Assembly (NCBI GenBank): GCA_045616665.1
Contig: JAZLHE010000044.1
Coordinates: 1,944-65,943 of the forward strand
DNA: 64,000 nt
From: Bacteroidales bacterium
GTDB taxonomy: Bacteria > Bacteroidota > Bacteroidia > Bacteroidales > WCHB1-69
Reading direction: 5' to 3'
Shown: in pieces, positions 2,292 to 58,926 of the stretch
How positions within the stretch are numbered: the stretch's first letter is position 1
Layout: each line of letters starts with the position of its first letter
Notes under the pieces: model-generated
The model's database searches: none
Told to the model about the DNA's origin: nothing
The model's input: only the letters and a program-made list of their open reading frames with translations
Made by a program: the position numbers and the translations under genes

Positions 2292-3302
2292 TTATTTTTC
2301 AATGTCAACTTCCAAACTGTCTTTCAGTCTTGCCAAGCCGGAAGTGGCCAAATAAACACCGTCCTTGATGTCTTCGTTGAGCAATTCGTACTTGGTGTCC
2401 AAGTGACGTCCTAATTGAACCTGCTTGAAGAAAACGCGGCCGTTGTCGTAAACGTAAACATAACGGTTGCCAGAACCTTGCTGTCTGTAAATGGCTTCGT
2501 CGGGAACGACGATGTGGTTGACCATACCAAAGTTGATGGTTACGCGAGCATACATACCCGGACGAACGCGGCGATCACCGTTTGGCAATTGAATTTCCAC
2601 TGGGAACGTGTGGGTCGTACCGTCAATGGTGGGATAAATCAAGCTGACGTTTCCTTTGAAAACCTCACCGTCGTATGCATCAACGAGAATGTCCACCGGC
2701 ATACCGACTTTCACTTTAGTAAATAATGCTTCTGAAATGTTGATGAGCATCTTGACTGGGTTGATTTGCTGTACCTGAACCACGGGAAGTCCGCCGTACA
2801 AGTCTCCGCTATCATAGTTTCTGGCGGTGATGACGCCATTCAACGGACTAAGTAACTGCGTGTTTTCCAATAAGTTGTCGTAAGAAGTCTGGGTAACGTC
2901 CAGATTCGTTTTCATAGCGTCCCAGTCAGATTTTGAAACGCCGCCGACTTTGTAAAGTTCGTCAATACGCTTGAAACTGGTTTTCAAGTTGTCCAATTGG
3001 CTTTTGGTTTGCTTCAGACTGTTTTCGTTCATCTGCACCAAGACCTGACCTTTGGTAACATAGTCACCCACTTCCACGAAAATCTTGTCAATACGTCCGC
3101 CTGTCAAAGGTGCGATGTTGTTTACGGCCTCTGCTTGGATGATGGCAGTGTATTCGTACAACTGTTCCACTTCCTGAATGGCAACCTGTTGTACCTTGAT
3201 TTTGAATTTTTCATCCACGGTGCCGGTGTCGGCTTTCTTGTTAGAGCAGGCGGCAAAAATCATCAAACAGCCCATCAATCCGAATAAAAAGTTTTTTTTC
3301 AT
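2292..3302 (-). CDS. RND efflux membrane fusion (periplasmic adaptor) lipoprotein, HlyD/AcrA family
   Basis: 336 aa. Lipoprotein signal MKKNFLFGLMGCLMIFAAC. Adaptor-like barrel-sandwich/coiled-coil layout. Lies between the TolC-like and RND genes. Confidence 0.85.
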   Translation of the reverse strand: MKKNFLFGLMGCLMIFAACSNKKADTGTVDEKFKIKVQQVAIQEVEQLYEYTAIIQAEAVNNIAPLTGGRIDKIFVEVGDYVTKGQVLVQMNENSLKQTKSQLDNLKTSFKRIDELYKVGGVSKSDWDAMKTNLDVTQTSYDNLLENTQLLSPLNGVITARNYDSGDLYGGLPVVQVQQINPVKMLINISEALFTKVKVGMPVDILVDAYDGEVFKGNVSLIYPTIDGTTHTFPVEIQLPNGDRRVRPGMYARVTINFGMVNHIVVPDEAIYRQQGSGNRYVYVYDNGRVFFKQVQLGRHLDTKYELLNEDIKDGVYLATSGLARLKDSLEVDIEK

Positions 3303-3357
3303 TGTTTATATATTTTAATTTTTATTTCCGAAATTAATAAAGTCAAAGGTTAGGGGA

Positions 3358-4698
3358 TTATTCATTGCCGATTAAAGCGTCCAAAGAAGCTTTTGCCGTT
3401 AAATAGTTAAATAGAGATTGGCAATAGGTAAGACGAGTGGTGGTAAGCATCAATTCGGCGGCGTTGAGGTCAATCCAGGTGTTTAGGCCGACTTCGTATT
3501 GTTTTTGTGCGATTTCGTGTGTCTTTTCTGCCTGTAGCATTGTTTCCTTGTCAGATACAAGGTCTTCCAACGACTGCTGCATATCATTCAGGTAGCTTTG
3601 CGCTCCAAGACGAAGATTGCGTTCCACATCAAGGCGTTGGTCTTCCATATTTTGGATGTTCAGGTTGGTTTGTTTGAGTTGATAGGATGTGGCTGCCCAG
3701 GAAACGATGGGAACAGACAAGCCCAGACCGATGACCGAATACGGAAAATTGTTGAATTCACCGCCAGTGTCACCCATACCGTTATACATTAGACTTCCTG
3801 TAAAGGCCAAATTGGGACAAGCGGAACTCTTGATAATCTTTTTGGATTGCTGCAGTTCCTCGATTCCAAGGTCCAATTGACGCAAGGAACTGTTGTTGTC
3901 CAAACTGATTTGATCCAGCTGCGGAACGAAGGAATTCAAGATTTCTTCTTCATAATCATATAGCTCGCCGTCAAAAATTACAGGTTCATTCACATCCATA
4001 CCCAAAATGATCTTGAGTCTCATATAGGCTAAGGTGGTGGCTTTGGCGGCAGAAGTCACGTCGGGGCGCAAATTCTGTAATGCCACGTCGGAACGGAGTT
4101 TCTCAAAATCGGATACTAAGCCCTGATTGTACTGTTTCGTCACCAAGTCGTTGTTGGCCTTTGAATTTTCGTAACTTTGCAGCAGTACCTCGTGTCCCTG
4201 TTTCGCTACCAGATAAGTGTAATAGGCCTGCTTGATTTGATTGATCAACTCCAATTTGGAGGAACGGGCGGATTCCATAGCCAGTTCCACGTCCATTTGT
4301 GATAATTTCAGACTGGTCCACAAGGCTGGAGCAATGACAGGCAGTGACAAAGATGCGCCTACCGAATAGTTATGGTCTTTACCTACCTTGATATTCATAT
4401 CCTGACCTCCCATGCTCATAGCCATACTCTGTTTTAAAAGGGTGTATTGATAAGAGCCGGACAATGACACATTGGGGAAAAGTGACACAATCTGTTCTTT
4501 CTTGTATTCTTGTTTAATCTGAATGTCTCGTCCCGCAATGCGAATGGAAGGACTTTCGCTGAGTCCTATTTCAATGGCTTTTTGCAAATTGATGTGTACG
4601 GAATCTCTTTTTTCCTGAGCAATGATTAGTCCTGTTGAGAGAAACAGTAGGCTCGCAATCAAGCTGAATCTTGAAATTTTCTTGAGGTAAATTGTCAT
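3358..4698 (-). CDS. TolC-family outer membrane efflux protein
   Basis: 446 aa with a signal peptide and two-repeat OEP-like sequence. First gene of the efflux operon. Confidence 0.85.
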   Translation of the reverse strand: MTIYLKKISRFSLIASLLFLSTGLIIAQEKRDSVHINLQKAIEIGLSESPSIRIAGRDIQIKQEYKKEQIVSLFPNVSLSGSYQYTLLKQSMAMSMGGQDMNIKVGKDHNYSVGASLSLPVIAPALWTSLKLSQMDVELAMESARSSKLELINQIKQAYYTYLVAKQGHEVLLQSYENSKANNDLVTKQYNQGLVSDFEKLRSDVALQNLRPDVTSAAKATTLAYMRLKIILGMDVNEPVIFDGELYDYEEEILNSFVPQLDQISLDNNSSLRQLDLGIEELQQSKKIIKSSACPNLAFTGSLMYNGMGDTGGEFNNFPYSVIGLGLSVPIVSWAATSYQLKQTNLNIQNMEDQRLDVERNLRLGAQSYLNDMQQSLEDLVSDKETMLQAEKTHEIAQKQYEVGLNTWIDLNAAELMLTTTRLTYCQSLFNYLTAKASLDALIGNE

Positions 4699-11390: not shown

Positions 11391-12665
11391 TCACGGTTTC
11401 AAACAGGCAATAGGTACAACAAAAATTCCGTCTTTTCGTTGATAGGCGTATTGACCAACGGCAGTGACAATCATACAAAAGGCCGGTTCATTCATTCGTT
11501 GGGTATCAATGATTGACTTCAAGGAGTTGATGGAATGGGCGGCTTCCTCAATTTTGGTGTTACCGCCCAATTTGATTTCAATTAAGGCGTATTGTCCGTT
11601 GCGGCGGTGCAGTACTGTGTCGCATTCCAGTCCGTTGCTGTCGCGGTAATGATACAGTTTGCCATCTAATTTGTCGGCATAGACTCTTAGGTCGCGTACG
11701 GCCAAGTTCTCAAAAAACATACCGCAGGCTTTGAGGTCGTTTTTCAAGTCGTTAGGACCAATGCCTAAAGCAGCCGTGGCAATGCTGGGATCCATAAAAT
11801 ATCTATTGTCAGATGTGCGAATGATGGTTTTACTGCGAAGATTGGGGTTCCAGGAGGGCATATCCTCAATGGTGAATAATTTTTTTAAGGCATCTACGTA
11901 GTCTTTAACTGTTTCATCAGAAATATTTTGATTGTCATTGCTCTTGATATCTTGGCAAATGGTGCTGTATGGCACTTGGTGTCCTAAATTTCGTGCATAG
12001 GAATGTAAGATCAGCTTTGCACGTTCCGGACTTCTACGCGTATTGTCAACCCGCTTTATATCTACTTCTGTAATTGCGTCGTAGTAGTCCAATGCTTGGT
12101 CCAATGCAATTTTTTCGGACAAGAATGTGGCAGACGGCCATCCGCCACGGCAGATTAAAAAGGTAATGGCATCCAAGTCCAATTCGTTGGGAATGACATC
12201 AATGTCGCATCCGTCAAATAAGTCGCCTAAACTGACTTTTCCATTAGATTCTCCTGATTCAAAAAGACTCATTGTGCGCATTTTAAGGCGACTGATTCGG
12301 CCAGTTCCGCTGTGGACGGTTTTATAGGCTTCGGGCAAAACCGAAGATCCGGTTAGGATGAATTGTCCAGGATCACCCCGTTCATCCACTTCACTTCGTA
12401 TCATATCCCAAATTTCCGGAATGGTTTGCCATTCGTCAAATAAGCGCGGAACGGCTCCAAGTAGAATTTGTTCCGGGGCAACGTCTAAAGCATCAAGAGT
12501 ATTTAGTAAAACAGAAGTTTTGCCTAACATCAAGGTGCTTTTGGCTATCCGTTTGGCCGTGGTAGTTTTGCCGCACCATTTGGGTCCGTCTATCAATACG
12601 GCGCCTTTCCCTTCCAATTTTCGCAGTAGCATTTCGTCGGAAATTCGATACTTGTATGCTTTCAT
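11391..12665 (-). CDS. Orphan AAA+ ATPase (AAA_14 + DUF4143-type)
   Basis: 424 aa. Walker A GPKWCGKTT, Walker B-like LFDEWQ, FILTGSS and SGRISRLKMRTMSLFE motifs typical of this family. AT-rich relative to its neighbours. Confidence 0.75.
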   Translation of the reverse strand: MKAYKYRISDEMLLRKLEGKGAVLIDGPKWCGKTTTAKRIAKSTLMLGKTSVLLNTLDALDVAPEQILLGAVPRLFDEWQTIPEIWDMIRSEVDERGDPGQFILTGSSVLPEAYKTVHSGTGRISRLKMRTMSLFESGESNGKVSLGDLFDGCDIDVIPNELDLDAITFLICRGGWPSATFLSEKIALDQALDYYDAITEVDIKRVDNTRRSPERAKLILHSYARNLGHQVPYSTICQDIKSNDNQNISDETVKDYVDALKKLFTIEDMPSWNPNLRSKTIIRTSDNRYFMDPSIATAALGIGPNDLKNDLKACGMFFENLAVRDLRVYADKLDGKLYHYRDSNGLECDTVLHRRNGQYALIEIKLGGNTKIEEAAHSINSLKSIIDTQRMNEPAFCMIVTAVGQYAYQRKDGIFVVPIACLKP

Positions 12666-12689: not shown

Positions 12690-12697
12690 CAAAAGTA
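12690..12697 (-). promoter_or_regulatory. -7 box (TACTTTTG on minus strand) for the DUF4143-type ATPase
   Basis: The reverse complement of caaaagta matches TAnnTTTG, about 25 nt upstream of the ATG at 12665. Confidence 0.5.
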
Positions 12698-12735
12698 CTA
12701 AAAATAAATGATATAAATGATAAAATAAATAAATT

Positions 12736-13004
12736 TTCGGTAATTTATAGATGTTTTATTCGGTAAATTGTAGAGATTACATTCGGTAAAATATAGTAGA
12801 TTTGTTTGGTAAATTGTAGCGTATTTAGTCGTTAAATTATAGCAATTACATTCGGTAAAACATAGTGAATTTATTCGGTAAATTGTAGCGTGTTTATTCG
12901 GTAAATTATAGCGATTACATTCGGTTAAATATAGTGAATTTATTCGGTGAAATATAGTGAATTTATTCGGTAAATTGTCGTTTTGTTGTTTGGTAAATTG
13001 TACC
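12736..13004. repeat. Tandem array: 11 full + 1 partial copies of a degenerate 23-bp unit (TTCGGTAAAWTRTAGYGAWTTWM) with 69-bp higher-order periodicity
   Basis: Unit starts read off the sequence at 12736, 12759, 12782, 12805, 12828, 12851, 12874, 12897, 12920, 12943, 12966 and 12989, an exact 23-bp spacing. Units at 12759, 12828 and 12897 share the ...attaca ending. Confidence 0.9.
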
Positions 13005-13219
13005 TGGCGATTTAAAGAAATCGTATCGAAAAGTTGTCTAAAGATTAAGCCGATAGAGAGTTGTTCGCTTAGAAAGTCCACTGTCAGCAGCGGTAAAATC
13101 AATTGTCGTTCTTCGTGAAATGCAATGGCTTAGAACGATAAAAGTCCCTCGCACTTGTCTTATGCCTTATATTCTTTGCTCTTTCAAGTTTTGCAAGTGA
13201 CACATCACGGGAATGCCGT

Positions 13220-14020: not shown

Positions 14021-14093
14021 CGGGGTGTAGCGCAGTTGGTAGCGCGCTACGTTCGGGACGTAGAGGCCGCAAGTTCGAGTCTTGTCACCCCGA
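14021..14093 (+). tRNA. tRNA-Pro (anticodon CGG)
   Basis: Cloverleaf folded by hand: acceptor cggggtg/caccccg, D-arm gcgc-agttggta-gcgc, anticodon arm ctacg-ttCGGga-cgtag, T-arm gcaag-ttcgagt-cttgt. No encoded CCA. Confidence 0.9.
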
Positions 14094-14098
14094 CAAGC

Positions 14099-52951: not shown

Positions 52952-52992
52952 ATCCCTGGTTTAGTTGTTTATATGTTTAGTTGTTTATATGT

Positions 52993-54555
52993 TTAGTTGT
53001 TTTCTGTGTCAATTATCTCCATAGCGGTTTTGAGGCCGTCGAGGGCGGCACTGACGATGCCTCCCGCGTAGCCCGCGCCTTCGCCCACGGGATAGATGCC
53101 TTTGATGTTGCATTGTCGTTTTTCATCACGCAAAATCCGTACCGGCGACGACGACCTGCTTTCAATGCCGGTCATCACGGCGTCCGGGTCGTTGAAGCCG
53201 TGCATCTTCTTGTCCAGAAGAGGCAGTGCTTCCCGTAATGATTGCGTTACGTAGGCGGGAAGACAGCGTTCCAACTCGCAAAAAACGACTCCGTGAGGGT
53301 AGGAGGGGTTGACGCTTCGTGCCTGTGTTGCCACTTTTTTCCTCAAAAATTCGCCCACCAAGTTGGCGGGAGCCCGGTAGTCGCCAGCAATTTGAAATGC
53401 CTTTCGTTCGTAATCTTCTTGAAATTTCAGTCCATCCAAAGGATTGTCAACGAAAAAGTCTTCAGGATTGATACCCACGAGCAAGGCACTGTTGGCATTG
53501 GCTTTGTCGCGTTTTTTCTCGCTCATTCCGTTGGTGACGATGCTTTCCTTTTCGCTGGCGGAAGCCATCACGGTGCCGCCCGGGCACATACAGAAGGTAT
53601 AGACGCTGCGATTGGCCAAATGGACTACGCCGCGGTAGGAGGCGGCGGGCAGGAAACGGGCGCTTTTGCCGTATTGCATTTGGTTGATCTTGCTTTGCAG
53701 ATGTTCGATGCGAACGCCAATGGAGAATGCTTTGGGTTCCATCTTTAGTCCCTTGTTATACAAATGTCTGATGGTGTCGCGAGCCGAATGTCCCAGACAA
53801 AGCAGCAAATGTTCTGTCTGAAGGATTATTCCGCCATCGCAAAAGACACTGATGACATTGCCTTCTGTGGAAAAGTCGGTGAACCGGCAGTTGAAGTGAA
53901 ATTCGCCGCCCAGACTGATGATTTCTTCACGGATGTTGCGAACTACTTTTTCAAGATAGTCGGTGCCTACGTGCGGATTGGCGGAGTAGCATACATCTTC
54001 TGTGGCGCCGTGTTTATAAAATTCATCAAGAATAAATTGGATGAATTCGTCGTTGACGTTGGTGGAAAGCTTGCCGTCAGAAAAAGTGCCGGCACCGCCT
54101 TCTCCAAACTGGATGTTGGAGTTCTCGTTGAGTTTTTTGTCGGTCAGAAAGTCGGCCACGTCTTTTTTGCGTTGTTCGATACTGCCGCCTCGCTCAATGA
54201 TGATGGGGCGGGCGTGGCAGCGTGCCAAATAGAGGGCCGCAAACATTCCGGCGGGACCGAAACCCACCACGACGGGCTGGTGCGGAAAATTCCACTCTTC
54301 ATATCGCATTTCTTTTTTGGGCTTAAAAAGGCTGACATTGTCGAATTGCAGCAAATCCTCATTTTCATTTTTTAAATGAAGATAAATTTGATAAAGATAG
54401 AAAACGTGGTCTTTCTTGCGTGCGTCGATAGATTGTCTCAGAATCTTAAAATCCACGATATCTTCCATCGCGATATTATACTCTTTCGTCACCCTTGATT
54501 TCAGGTCAACTTTCTGTTCAACAGGTATCTTGATGTTTGAAATCTTAATTTTCAT
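52993..54555 (-). CDS. FAD-dependent oxidoreductase (COG2509-like)
   Basis: 520 aa. GFGPAGMFAA dinucleotide motif and C-terminal GEGAGYAGGI. Confidence 0.7.
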   Translation of the reverse strand: MKIKISNIKIPVEQKVDLKSRVTKEYNIAMEDIVDFKILRQSIDARKKDHVFYLYQIYLHLKNENEDLLQFDNVSLFKPKKEMRYEEWNFPHQPVVVGFGPAGMFAALYLARCHARPIIIERGGSIEQRKKDVADFLTDKKLNENSNIQFGEGGAGTFSDGKLSTNVNDEFIQFILDEFYKHGATEDVCYSANPHVGTDYLEKVVRNIREEIISLGGEFHFNCRFTDFSTEGNVISVFCDGGIILQTEHLLLCLGHSARDTIRHLYNKGLKMEPKAFSIGVRIEHLQSKINQMQYGKSARFLPAASYRGVVHLANRSVYTFCMCPGGTVMASASEKESIVTNGMSEKKRDKANANSALLVGINPEDFFVDNPLDGLKFQEDYERKAFQIAGDYRAPANLVGEFLRKKVATQARSVNPSYPHGVVFCELERCLPAYVTQSLREALPLLDKKMHGFNDPDAVMTGIESRSSSPVRILRDEKRQCNIKGIYPVGEGAGYAGGIVSAALDGLKTAMEIIDTENN

Positions 54556-57948: not shown

Positions 57949-58926
57949 TTATTCTTTTTCCTCCCCTCTGTCAACAACTTCCCAGTGGCCGCCGCGGTTA
58001 GCACCTATGCGGATAATCACGCCATCGTTAACCAATTGGTTGATATGCTTTTGGGCGTTCCTCTTATTCATTCCCAGGGCTTCTGCCATTTGTTCTACTG
58101 TTACTTTGGCATCTAAGGCAATTAATTCAAGGACGATGTCTTTTGGTGTCTTTTTTGGTGTCTTTTTTGGTGTCGCAATTTTATCTATGGTGTTCAGGAT
58201 ACATTGGAGCATAAACAGGATAAACGTCGAGCTGTTGCCTGCCTTGTCGCTGGAAGCAATCGCCTCGTAGTATTCTTGCTGATGTTCTTTTACCATCGAC
58301 TCTATAGGAATCCATGCGAAAATTGGTCGCCATTGTGCCAGCAAGGCCGTTTGCCACAATCGACCCATACGCCCATTTCCATCGGCAAACGGATGGATAA
58401 ACTCAAATTCGTAATGGAACACGCAGGAACTGATTAGTGGGTGTGTCTTGGTACTTTTTATCCATTCAAATAGATCTCCCATCAACTCAGGCACTCTCAT
58501 TGCTGGAGGAGCGAGGTGCACGCATCCCTGCTCGCCGAACACTCCGACGCCCGAGGTACGCCAACGACCAAATTCCTTTACCAAGCGCTGCATCATCACA
58601 CCATGTGCTTTTAGCAAATCCCTATAATTCAAAGGATCGATATCCGCCAGCAAGTCGTATGCGGCAATAGCGCCTTTCACTTCCTGTATTTCATTCTGAG
58701 GCCCCAATACACGCTTTCCTTCCATAATGGCAGTCACCTGCTCTATGCTCAAGGTGTTGTTCTCTATTGCCAAAGAGGATTGGATGGTCTTGATCCTGTT
58801 TTCTTTGCGCAGCATCGGATGAGGCATTTGATTCGTCATCATCACATTCAGGCCGCCTATCTTTTCGGATATTTCGGCCACGAAAGTCAGCATTTCATCG
58901 GATATGGTAAAAGGCGGTTGATACAT
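57949..58926 (-). CDS. Fic family protein (class II, N-terminal auto-inhibitory helix) with C-terminal winged-helix domain
   Basis: Fic motif HPFADGNGRMGR. Inhibitory motif SLAIEN, which fits [ST]xxxE[GN]. TPKK linker, then a wHTH-like tail. Confidence 0.88.
   Translation of the reverse strand: MYQPPFTISDEMLTFVAEISEKIGGLNVMMTNQMPHPMLRKENRIKTIQSSLAIENNTLSIEQVTAIMEGKRVLGPQNEIQEVKGAIAAYDLLADIDPLNYRDLLKAHGVMMQRLVKEFGRWRTSGVGVFGEQGCVHLAPPAMRVPELMGDLFEWIKSTKTHPLISSCVFHYEFEFIHPFADGNGRMGRLWQTALLAQWRPIFAWIPIESMVKEHQQEYYEAIASSDKAGNSSTFILFMLQCILNTIDKIATPKKTPKKTPKDIVLELIALDAKVTVEQMAEALGMNKRNAQKHINQLVNDGVIIRIGANRGGHWEVVDRGEEKE

Follow-up and report, generated by a model that had tools for sequence, protein, structure and literature searches.

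Plasmid iterons, such as those of RK2 (TrfA), pSC101 (RepA) and F (RepE), are direct repeats of about 17–22 bp that recur at a spacing of about 22–23 bp beside the gene that encodes their binding protein. A winged helix reads these repeats, their copy number varies and they double as an autoregulatory operator. In the centromere or operator arrays of partition and regulator systems (R1 parC–ParR and the pSM19035 Omega heptads), short direct repeats at a promoter are cooperatively bound by the product of the adjacent gene, and autorepression is an additional role of these repeats.

Here we describe a tandem array from a 64-kb stretch of DNA (the window; 64,000 nucleotides of a MAG contig from an uncultured Bacteroidales bacterium) and compare it with these systems. 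Like iterons, it is made of tandem direct repeats at 23 bp upstream of the gene of a putative binder, but it lies at a single chromosomal gene that lacks a replicon context, DnaA boxes and a conserved unwinding element, and the putative binder is an AAA+ ATPase–nuclease rather than a WH1–WH2 Rep protein. A replication origin was rejected for want of supporting features (no Rep domain, a chromosomal location and no conserved unwinding element). Short direct-repeat runs at a promoter beside the putative binder's gene are shared with parC–ParR and Omega, whose small ribbon-helix-helix binders, 7–11-bp units and partition ATPase are all absent from the window locus. STAND/AAA+ regulators (MalT on MalT boxes, SARP/AfsR) and Orc1/Cdc6 resemble the locus in joining an NTPase and a helical lid to a winged helix or HTH (8bob, 2qby, 2qen, 2fna), which in the window protein is a predicted DNA-binding domain, and in having multiple directional sites, putative ones at the window locus, beside a promoter or origin. 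MalT, however, has a LuxR-type HTH and activates other operons, and Orc1 marks replication origins, whereas the window protein has a C-terminal PD-(D/E)xK nuclease and sites before its own gene. ToxIN likewise has a short tandem array immediately upstream of a defence or toxin gene, but the ToxI repeats function as a transcribed RNA that is paired with an endoRNase toxin; at the window locus, the promoter is downstream of the array and the protein is of the AAA_14/DUF4143 type.

The window protein matches the models and the ATPase plus PD-(D/E)xK architecture of PDC-S01 (PMC12988326, PMC3424549), and DUF4143 is listed in the PD-(D/E)xK superfamily (PMC3424549). PDC-S01 is a phage-defence candidate that has yet to be validated experimentally (PMC12988326); of the PADLOC candidates, 145 went untested in the study that first presented them (bioRxiv 10.1101/2024.01.29.577857). 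PDC-S01 is very abundant, with approximately 39,000 instances in one survey and the rank of most frequent single locus in rumen genomes in another (PMC12988326, PMC13356809). In the searchable literature, in which papers cover protein abundance and domains, we found no published description of an upstream repeat array at DUF4143, COG1373, PDC-S01 or AAA_14 genes. From sequence comparison, the array in the window is most likely an expanded member of a conserved set of putative, iteron-like operators that is tied to PDC-S01-type genes.

The array and its gene

The features of the locus, in window coordinates, are as follows.

11391–12665, minus strand: ATPase gene, 424 aa, AAA+ ATPase, winged helix and PD-(D/E)xK nuclease (AAA_14 + DUF4143; PDC-S01), from Pfam, PADLOC, AF2 and Foldseek
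11796–12029, minus strand: predicted winged-helix domain, residues 213–290, from AF2 secondary structure and co-variation
11880–11918, minus strand: predicted recognition helix, residues 250–262, from AF2 secondary structure
12690–12697, minus strand: Bacteroidetes-type −7 promoter box TACTTTTG, read from the sequence, with the ATG about 25 nt downstream
12698–12735, minus strand: AT-rich promoter spacer from the last site to the −7 box, spanning the −33 region, from sequence and TRF
12736–13002, minus strand: putative binding-site array of 12 units, each made up of a 14-bp site and an A-rich spacer of 9 bp, in a register common with other loci
12698–13102, minus strand: 134-aa open reading frame (ORF) through the array, judged spurious (without a family match and open across the array in the window strain only)

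A first-pass annotation of this DNA had claimed a strict 23-bp array of 12 units, and the register is indeed exact, with starts at 12736, 12759 and so on to 12989 (12736–13011) and zero indels. The pattern TTCGGTAAATTRTAGYG, at three mismatches or fewer, has 12 matches in the 64-kb window, every one of them within the array; shuffles of the window gave a mean of 0.74 matches and a maximum of 3. Read in the orientation of the gene, the site is TAYAATTTACCGAA, and on the plus strand it occupies the first 14 nt of each unit (12736–12749, 12759–12772 and so on to 12989–13002). The window units and those of 76 other loci fall into the common register nnCAAnTnnCnGAAyrAAAnnnn. When all unit consensuses are aligned, information content sits mainly in CAA, in C-N-GAA and in the A-run that comes after them. 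The site is asymmetric and 14 bp long, with the general form CAA-N4-C-N-GAA. The orientation of the array relative to the gene is constant across loci. The units abut and the 9-bp stretch between sites is itself repeated, instead of forming the unique spacers of a CRISPR array, in agreement with the annotation's judgement that this is not CRISPR.

The Bacteroides −7 box has the consensus TAnnTTTG. In the window, 38 bp separate the TACTTTTG box from the first unit at 12736 (an earlier estimate was about 40 bp), and a Bacteroidetes-type −7 box likewise follows the array in loci L007, L014, L046, L058 and L072. A 9-bp repeat, ATAAATGAT, recurs 3.7 times at 12704–12734 within the promoter spacer, the sequence of which is identical in the close relatives L001–L006 and L228. 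The locus is chromosomal and flanked by a fucosidase gene and a GT2 gene. Just past the array-flanking GT2 gene is a tRNA-Pro(CGG) gene (14021–14094), at which we saw no sign of integration of the module. Elsewhere in the window, TRF reported two perfect short tandem repeats, GTTTAGTTGTTTATAT ×2.8 (52959–53002) and TTTTGGTGTCTT ×2.8 (58141–58174).

Although initially described as an orphan, the ATPase matches the phage-defence candidate PDC-S01 (PADLOC PDLC04790, E = 2.5e-58, residues 4–422), as well as AAA_14 (E = 7e-13) and DUF4143 (E = 6e-33) in Pfam. Its Walker A and B and PD-(D/E)xK catalytic residues are intact, and none of G27/K33, D77/E78, E319, D349 and E363-x-K365 varies among 82 sequences that reach as low as 19% identity. 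An AF2 model from an 82-sequence alignment (pLDDT 92.6; an alignment of 13 close sequences gave only 45.7) predicts an AAA+ core, a helical lid, three helices plus a wing (213–290) and a PD-(D/E)xK domain. The winged helix is placed between the AAA+ lid and the nuclease, and a two-helix insert (residues 50–68) between strand 2 and Walker B. The best Foldseek matches were archaeal AAA+/winged-helix ATPases (2qen, 2fna), NB-ARC proteins, MalT, ORC and Orc1/Cdc6 on origin DNA, with probabilities of 0.99–1.0 for 2qen, 2fna, NB-ARC, 2qby and 8bob; Card1 and Cdn1 were also among the matches. The region of a paralogue that is equivalent to the winged helix matches the Fur winged-helix family. A search of PDB sequences returned no match. 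In one 507-aa homologue (P0028), an internal stretch of about 83 residues that spans the lid and the beginning of the winged helix is duplicated in tandem (PQAIDMRDEIALDQ... twice).

Conservation of the layout across homologues

We collected 80 species-representative loci (503 kb) with an ATPase 55–66% identical to that of the window, from Bacteroidales, Prevotella, Muribaculaceae, Paludibacteraceae, Treponema, Sphaerochaeta, Clostridia, Dialister, Selenomonas and Verrucomicrobia. Across these loci, TRF placed 73 arrays of period 23 within 400 bp upstream of the gene, against 4 in the other approximately 470 kb. A site-chain detector, which calls at least three similar 14-bp sites just upstream of the promoter, was positive at 69 of the 75 loci that have enough upstream DNA, compared with 1 of 638 control segments. 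The spacing between sites is rigid, being exactly 23 bp in 247 of 249 cases. Three sites per locus is the commonest number (34 loci), followed by four (25 loci); the maximum, 12, occurs in the window and in one close relative.

The layout extends beyond this set. It is found in an ATPase clade that is only 29–31% identical and includes Chlorobi, Desulfobulbaceae and two GC-rich genomes (sites TGGCGAAAYGGTA), upstream of a Gardnerella homologue and on a Bacteroides ovatus plasmid (ATPase identity, 51%). On viral contigs, the 13–14-bp sites are conserved but the spacers are not. At 22–27% identity, the promoters of ATPase family members have palindromes, or repeats at other spacings, in place of the 23-bp layout. 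The array layout is kept in at least eight phylum-level groups. A search of relatives for the 23-bp unit, which had been suggested as a check, finds the layout upstream of homologous ATPase genes in many phyla, and the proposal of an iteron-like protein-binding array is strongly supported by the 23-bp spacing across phyla together with the co-variation of site and protein described below. Searches with exact patterns were negative: the two-unit pattern had no match in a collection of genome contigs to which the window's genome does not belong, and the promoter-flank pattern had none in metagenome contigs.

A homologue with 82% amino acid identity (L007) is preceded by three units and lies beside a type III restriction-modification system. 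DNA homology between this locus and the window extends from the array to near the gene's end, and the neighbourhoods differ; the mobile unit is therefore the array, promoter and gene together.

The arrays also leave traces in sequence records. Database homologues P0006, P0009 and P0095 (63–65% identical) have false N-terminal extensions (TEQNRHNSP...) that are translated similar repeats. Many 438-aa entries are likewise extended, as gene callers run the ATPase ORF upstream through the A-rich array and produce 23-aa repeats. In locus L025, the ATPase start is preceded, at a distance of 71 bp, by a 174-nt run of N (420–593; about 7.5 × 23 bp), exactly where an array is expected, and the position of the array is therefore masked in the genome record. 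Locus L011 has two different 23-bp arrays before one gene: five CGCCACAATCTTCCGGTTAAAAT units (2530–2650) upstream of a TAATTTTG box, and a second array (2736–2797) with the spirochaete-like GCCAAAT between that box and the ATG. In Gardnerella vaginalis (L106), two convergent AAA_14–DUF4143 genes are side by side (1501–2775 and 3222–4275).

Co-variation of site and protein

When the distance between sites was correlated with the distance between proteins, with overall divergence controlled, the partial correlation peaked at residues 43–66, 220–240 and 244–264; other, equally variable regions of the protein had no such peak. We then ranked all 424 columns over 460 pairs of proteins that are at least 72% identical. 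Residue 251 was the best column, with a different site core in 120 of 120 pairs in which it differs and in 30 of 340 pairs in which it is the same; the pairs are non-independent, which inflates p-values, and only the ranking of columns is informative. The next-best columns were 233, 195, 254 and 264, and four of the top five fall in the predicted helix-turn-helix. Residue 251 is at the start of the predicted recognition helix, and residues 233, 251 and 254 of the winged helix track the site sequence. At position 251, D accompanies a CCGA or CCAA core, E accompanies CGGA, N accompanies CTGA and K accompanies GGAA. The protein motifs and site cores pair as follows.

LDEDTVADY: site core ACCGAA
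LDENTV(F/V/M)DY: site core ACTGAA
I(S/T)YETVSDY: site core TTGCGGAA
DDKT: site core TTTGGAA

From this correspondence we infer that the sites are bound by the winged helix of the ATPase itself, a conclusion that is indirectly well supported.

The co-variation bears on another explanation, in which a host factor reads the sites, or the sites are intrinsically curved A-tract DNA that boosts the promoter, and the ATPase takes no part. In its favour, one strand of the units is rich in A, with runs of A about 11–12 bp apart, and arrays persist without the gene; in L031, L217 and L169, an array and promoter precede other genes. However, a host factor is very unlikely because the site type changes between close relatives in one host group (ACCGAA, ACTGAA or TTGCGGAA), tracking one residue, and because the layout is maintained across at least eight phylum-level groups, which would not share a single host factor. 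The layout is also kept in GC-rich genomes with sites that are not A-tracts.

Position of the array relative to promoters

In spirochaetes, the TTGCCA of the last unit is itself the −35 hexamer of a TTGCCA-17-TATAAT promoter (11 of 12 consensus positions in L070), and the ATG is 6–7 nt past the −10 box. In Clostridia, Dialister and Verrucomicrobia, the array ends a few base pairs before a good −35 element; in L084, the promoter has 10 of 12 consensus positions and a terminator precedes the array. In Bacteroidales, the array ends about 38 bp before the TAnnTTTG box. As exceptions that count against an operator, L052 and the second array of L011 have a likely promoter upstream of the array.

These positions can be read as activation or as repression. 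Under activation, the ATPase would oligomerize on the array when triggered and switch on its own promoter, so that the cell responds to infection by feed-forward control. The fold resembles STAND/NB-ARC proteins and MalT in Foldseek, the last site in Firmicutes and Bacteroidales is just upstream of the −35/−33 element, where activators bind, and MalT or the SARP/AfsR-type STAND regulators, which act on direct repeats upstream of −35, offer a precedent. The promoters, however, are already near consensus (L070 and L084), which suits repression better than dependence on an activator. The last spirochaete site covers the −35 element and the promoter spacer, and the arrays of L052 and L011 are downstream of the likely promoter, and an activator would need a fixed stereospecific position. 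We therefore regard activation as improbable.

The same positions argue against a role for the array as RNA (a ToxI-like antitoxin or a structured leader) or as the source of a 134-aa repeat peptide. Short tandem repeats immediately before a defence gene that is probably toxic do recall type III toxin–antitoxin systems, and the minus-strand ORF at 12698–13102, which the first-pass annotation read as 23-aa repeats, exists and is open. But the promoter is either on the gene side of the array or overlaps its last unit, and in most loci the gene's own promoter therefore does not transcribe the array; in L084, the terminator comes before the array. Predicted folding of the array RNA is no better than that of shuffled sequence (z = +1.04 sense, −0.72 antisense), the ATPase is no RNase of the ToxN type and Rfam had no match for the array. 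The ORF is broken by stops in the nearest relatives (L001, L002 and L006) and belongs to no family. We accordingly rejected a ToxI-like RNA antitoxin because of where the promoter lies and because the RNA shows no structure signal, and a repeat peptide for want of conservation of the ORF; taken together, we consider any such role extremely improbable.

Copy number in close relatives

Relatives with the same synteny have 12, 11, 10 or 9 units between identical flanks, as anticipated by the suggestion that copy number might vary between strains. Three short-read contigs end within the array. Across copy numbers of 9–12, a constant 70 bp separates the last site from the ATG, and the promoter does not change. 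The idea of a phase-variable element thus stands for the variation in length but not for a switch: with the last site fixed at 70 bp from the ATG, a change in length cannot turn the promoter on or off in the classical way, as at contingency loci in which copy number alters promoter spacing or frame.

The first-pass annotation also proposed a true period of 69 bp from an ...ATTACA ending shared by every third unit, which is present at 12759, 12828 and 12897. TRF fits the array to a 23-bp period (11.5 copies, 70% matches) and gives a better score to a 69-bp period (3.5 copies, 83% matches, score 326). Among units 1–10, unit-to-unit identity is 0.82 at lag 3, compared with 0.72, 0.71 and 0.72 at lags 1, 2 and 4. 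The longer period is real in the window strain, but the nearest relatives show a weak 46-bp alternation, and 69 bp is not supported as a conserved functional period. It is best read as the amplification, in the window lineage, of an ancestral block of three sites, and as such would record the history of that lineage.

Solo and flanking arrays

Metagenomes scanned for two adjacent sites of the Bacteroidales type yielded 120 loci, of which about 108 were assessable.

47 loci: ATPase start 38–139 bp downstream of the array
10 loci: only a C-terminal fragment of the ATPase downstream of the array
51 loci: no such ATPase downstream of the array
12 loci: not assessable

Four solo loci were matched to occupied loci, three of them at the base level. 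The gene is absent from the solo locus in each of the latter (L192 versus L033, L227 versus L046 and L169 versus L223), and the boundary of the loss changes from case to case. In L169, the leftover array and promoter drive the next gene. In the fourth (L108 versus L191, compared by BLAST blocks only), the ATPase is missing and a neighbouring YhcG-type gene is kept. Because the boundaries differ and ten arrays precede C-terminal fragments, many solo arrays look like deletion relics, and we read the pattern as fast gene turnover that leaves relic arrays behind. Site-specific excision was rejected, as deletion boundaries differ between cases. The frequency of solo arrays leaves room for a function in trans, as a scaffold or otherwise independent of the gene in cis. 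Some arrays of the solo type are near distant paralogues with a different recognition helix (L113, L133 and L206).

Some loci have a direct second copy of the array just downstream of the ATPase gene (L014, 4697–4760; L031, 4575–4678; L061, 1780–1837). We found no second ATPase copy behind these downstream arrays and no inverted repeats flanking the module. By eye, the second array and promoter of L031 precede an 841-aa gene that resembles gyrA/parC in its N-terminal sequence, and the array of L217 precedes an apparent BASS-type transporter gene. In L169 and L205, the array precedes a 78-aa ORF. A possible partner gene follows some ATPases, either a YhcG/DUF1016 PD-(D/E)xK nuclease (L191/L108) or the 78-aa ORF (L223/L169), and it remains behind the array when the ATPase is lost (L108 and L169).

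Such loci raise the possibility that the array is more than an operator. As a docking track, it would let the AAA+ nuclease polymerize with one protomer per 23 bp, parking or licensing the nuclease, and recombination between arrays would let the gene come and go as a cassette. A 23-bp step would turn each protomer by about 60–70 degrees round the DNA, which would fit a five- or six-fold AAA+ spiral, and this idea, if true, would account for both the flanking copies and the many solo arrays; we nevertheless think it unlikely. Closely related is the proposal that the array is a scaffold for an Orc/DnaA-like nuclease spiral (for parking or licensing) or a recombination site for a gene cassette. 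In its favour, the protein resembles DNA-bound Orc1/Cdc6 in Foldseek, and co-variation also peaks in the two-helix insert (residues 43–66). The initiator-specific motif occupies this place, between strand 2 and Walker B. Array copies downstream of the gene in L014, L031 and L061, the occurrence of the array–promoter–gene module in unrelated contexts and the commonness of solo arrays are also consistent with it. By contrast, the three base-level comparisons have different, untidy boundaries, as would arise from random deletions, and flanking copies occur in just 3 of 80 loci. Integrase and transposase genes are absent, as are terminal inverted repeats, and no AT-rich unwinding element is conserved across clades. 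A scaffold or cassette site is, on balance, quite unlikely.

Proposed mechanism

We favour, with a probability of roughly 0.6, a reading in which the units of the array serve as successive operators for the ATPase encoded next door and mediate autoregulation, probably repression. In this autoregulatory scheme, the winged helix would read one site, with the start of the recognition helix (residues 250–254) on the variable core. Protomers would line up head-to-tail, one per 23 bp, probably aided by contacts between AAA+ domains. The last site abuts or overlaps the −35/−33 element of the gene's own strong promoter, and an occupied array would therefore repress, holding down the transcription of a potentially self-toxic nuclease by negative autoregulation. 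The comparisons show directly a conserved anatomy, the placement of the array at the promoter, the domain architecture, the co-variation of protein and site and a polymorphism in copy number; binding of the sites by the ATPase, cooperativity and repression are what we infer. The ancestral and usual state would be three or four sites, which the window lineage may have amplified to 9–12 by unequal recombination or slippage, leaving the 69-bp higher-order period.

Implications for PDC-S01

PDC-S01 has been reported among the commonest candidate defence genes of prokaryotes. The array accounts for assembly breaks within it and for the false N-terminal extensions that gene callers give to the ATPase. 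It may also serve as a sequence signature with which to find or date PDC-S01 loci, including places from which the gene has been lost. The rigid spacing and the correspondence between residues and bases give a PDC-S01 protein a concrete candidate DNA target, and the array implies a likely regulatory circuit for this family.
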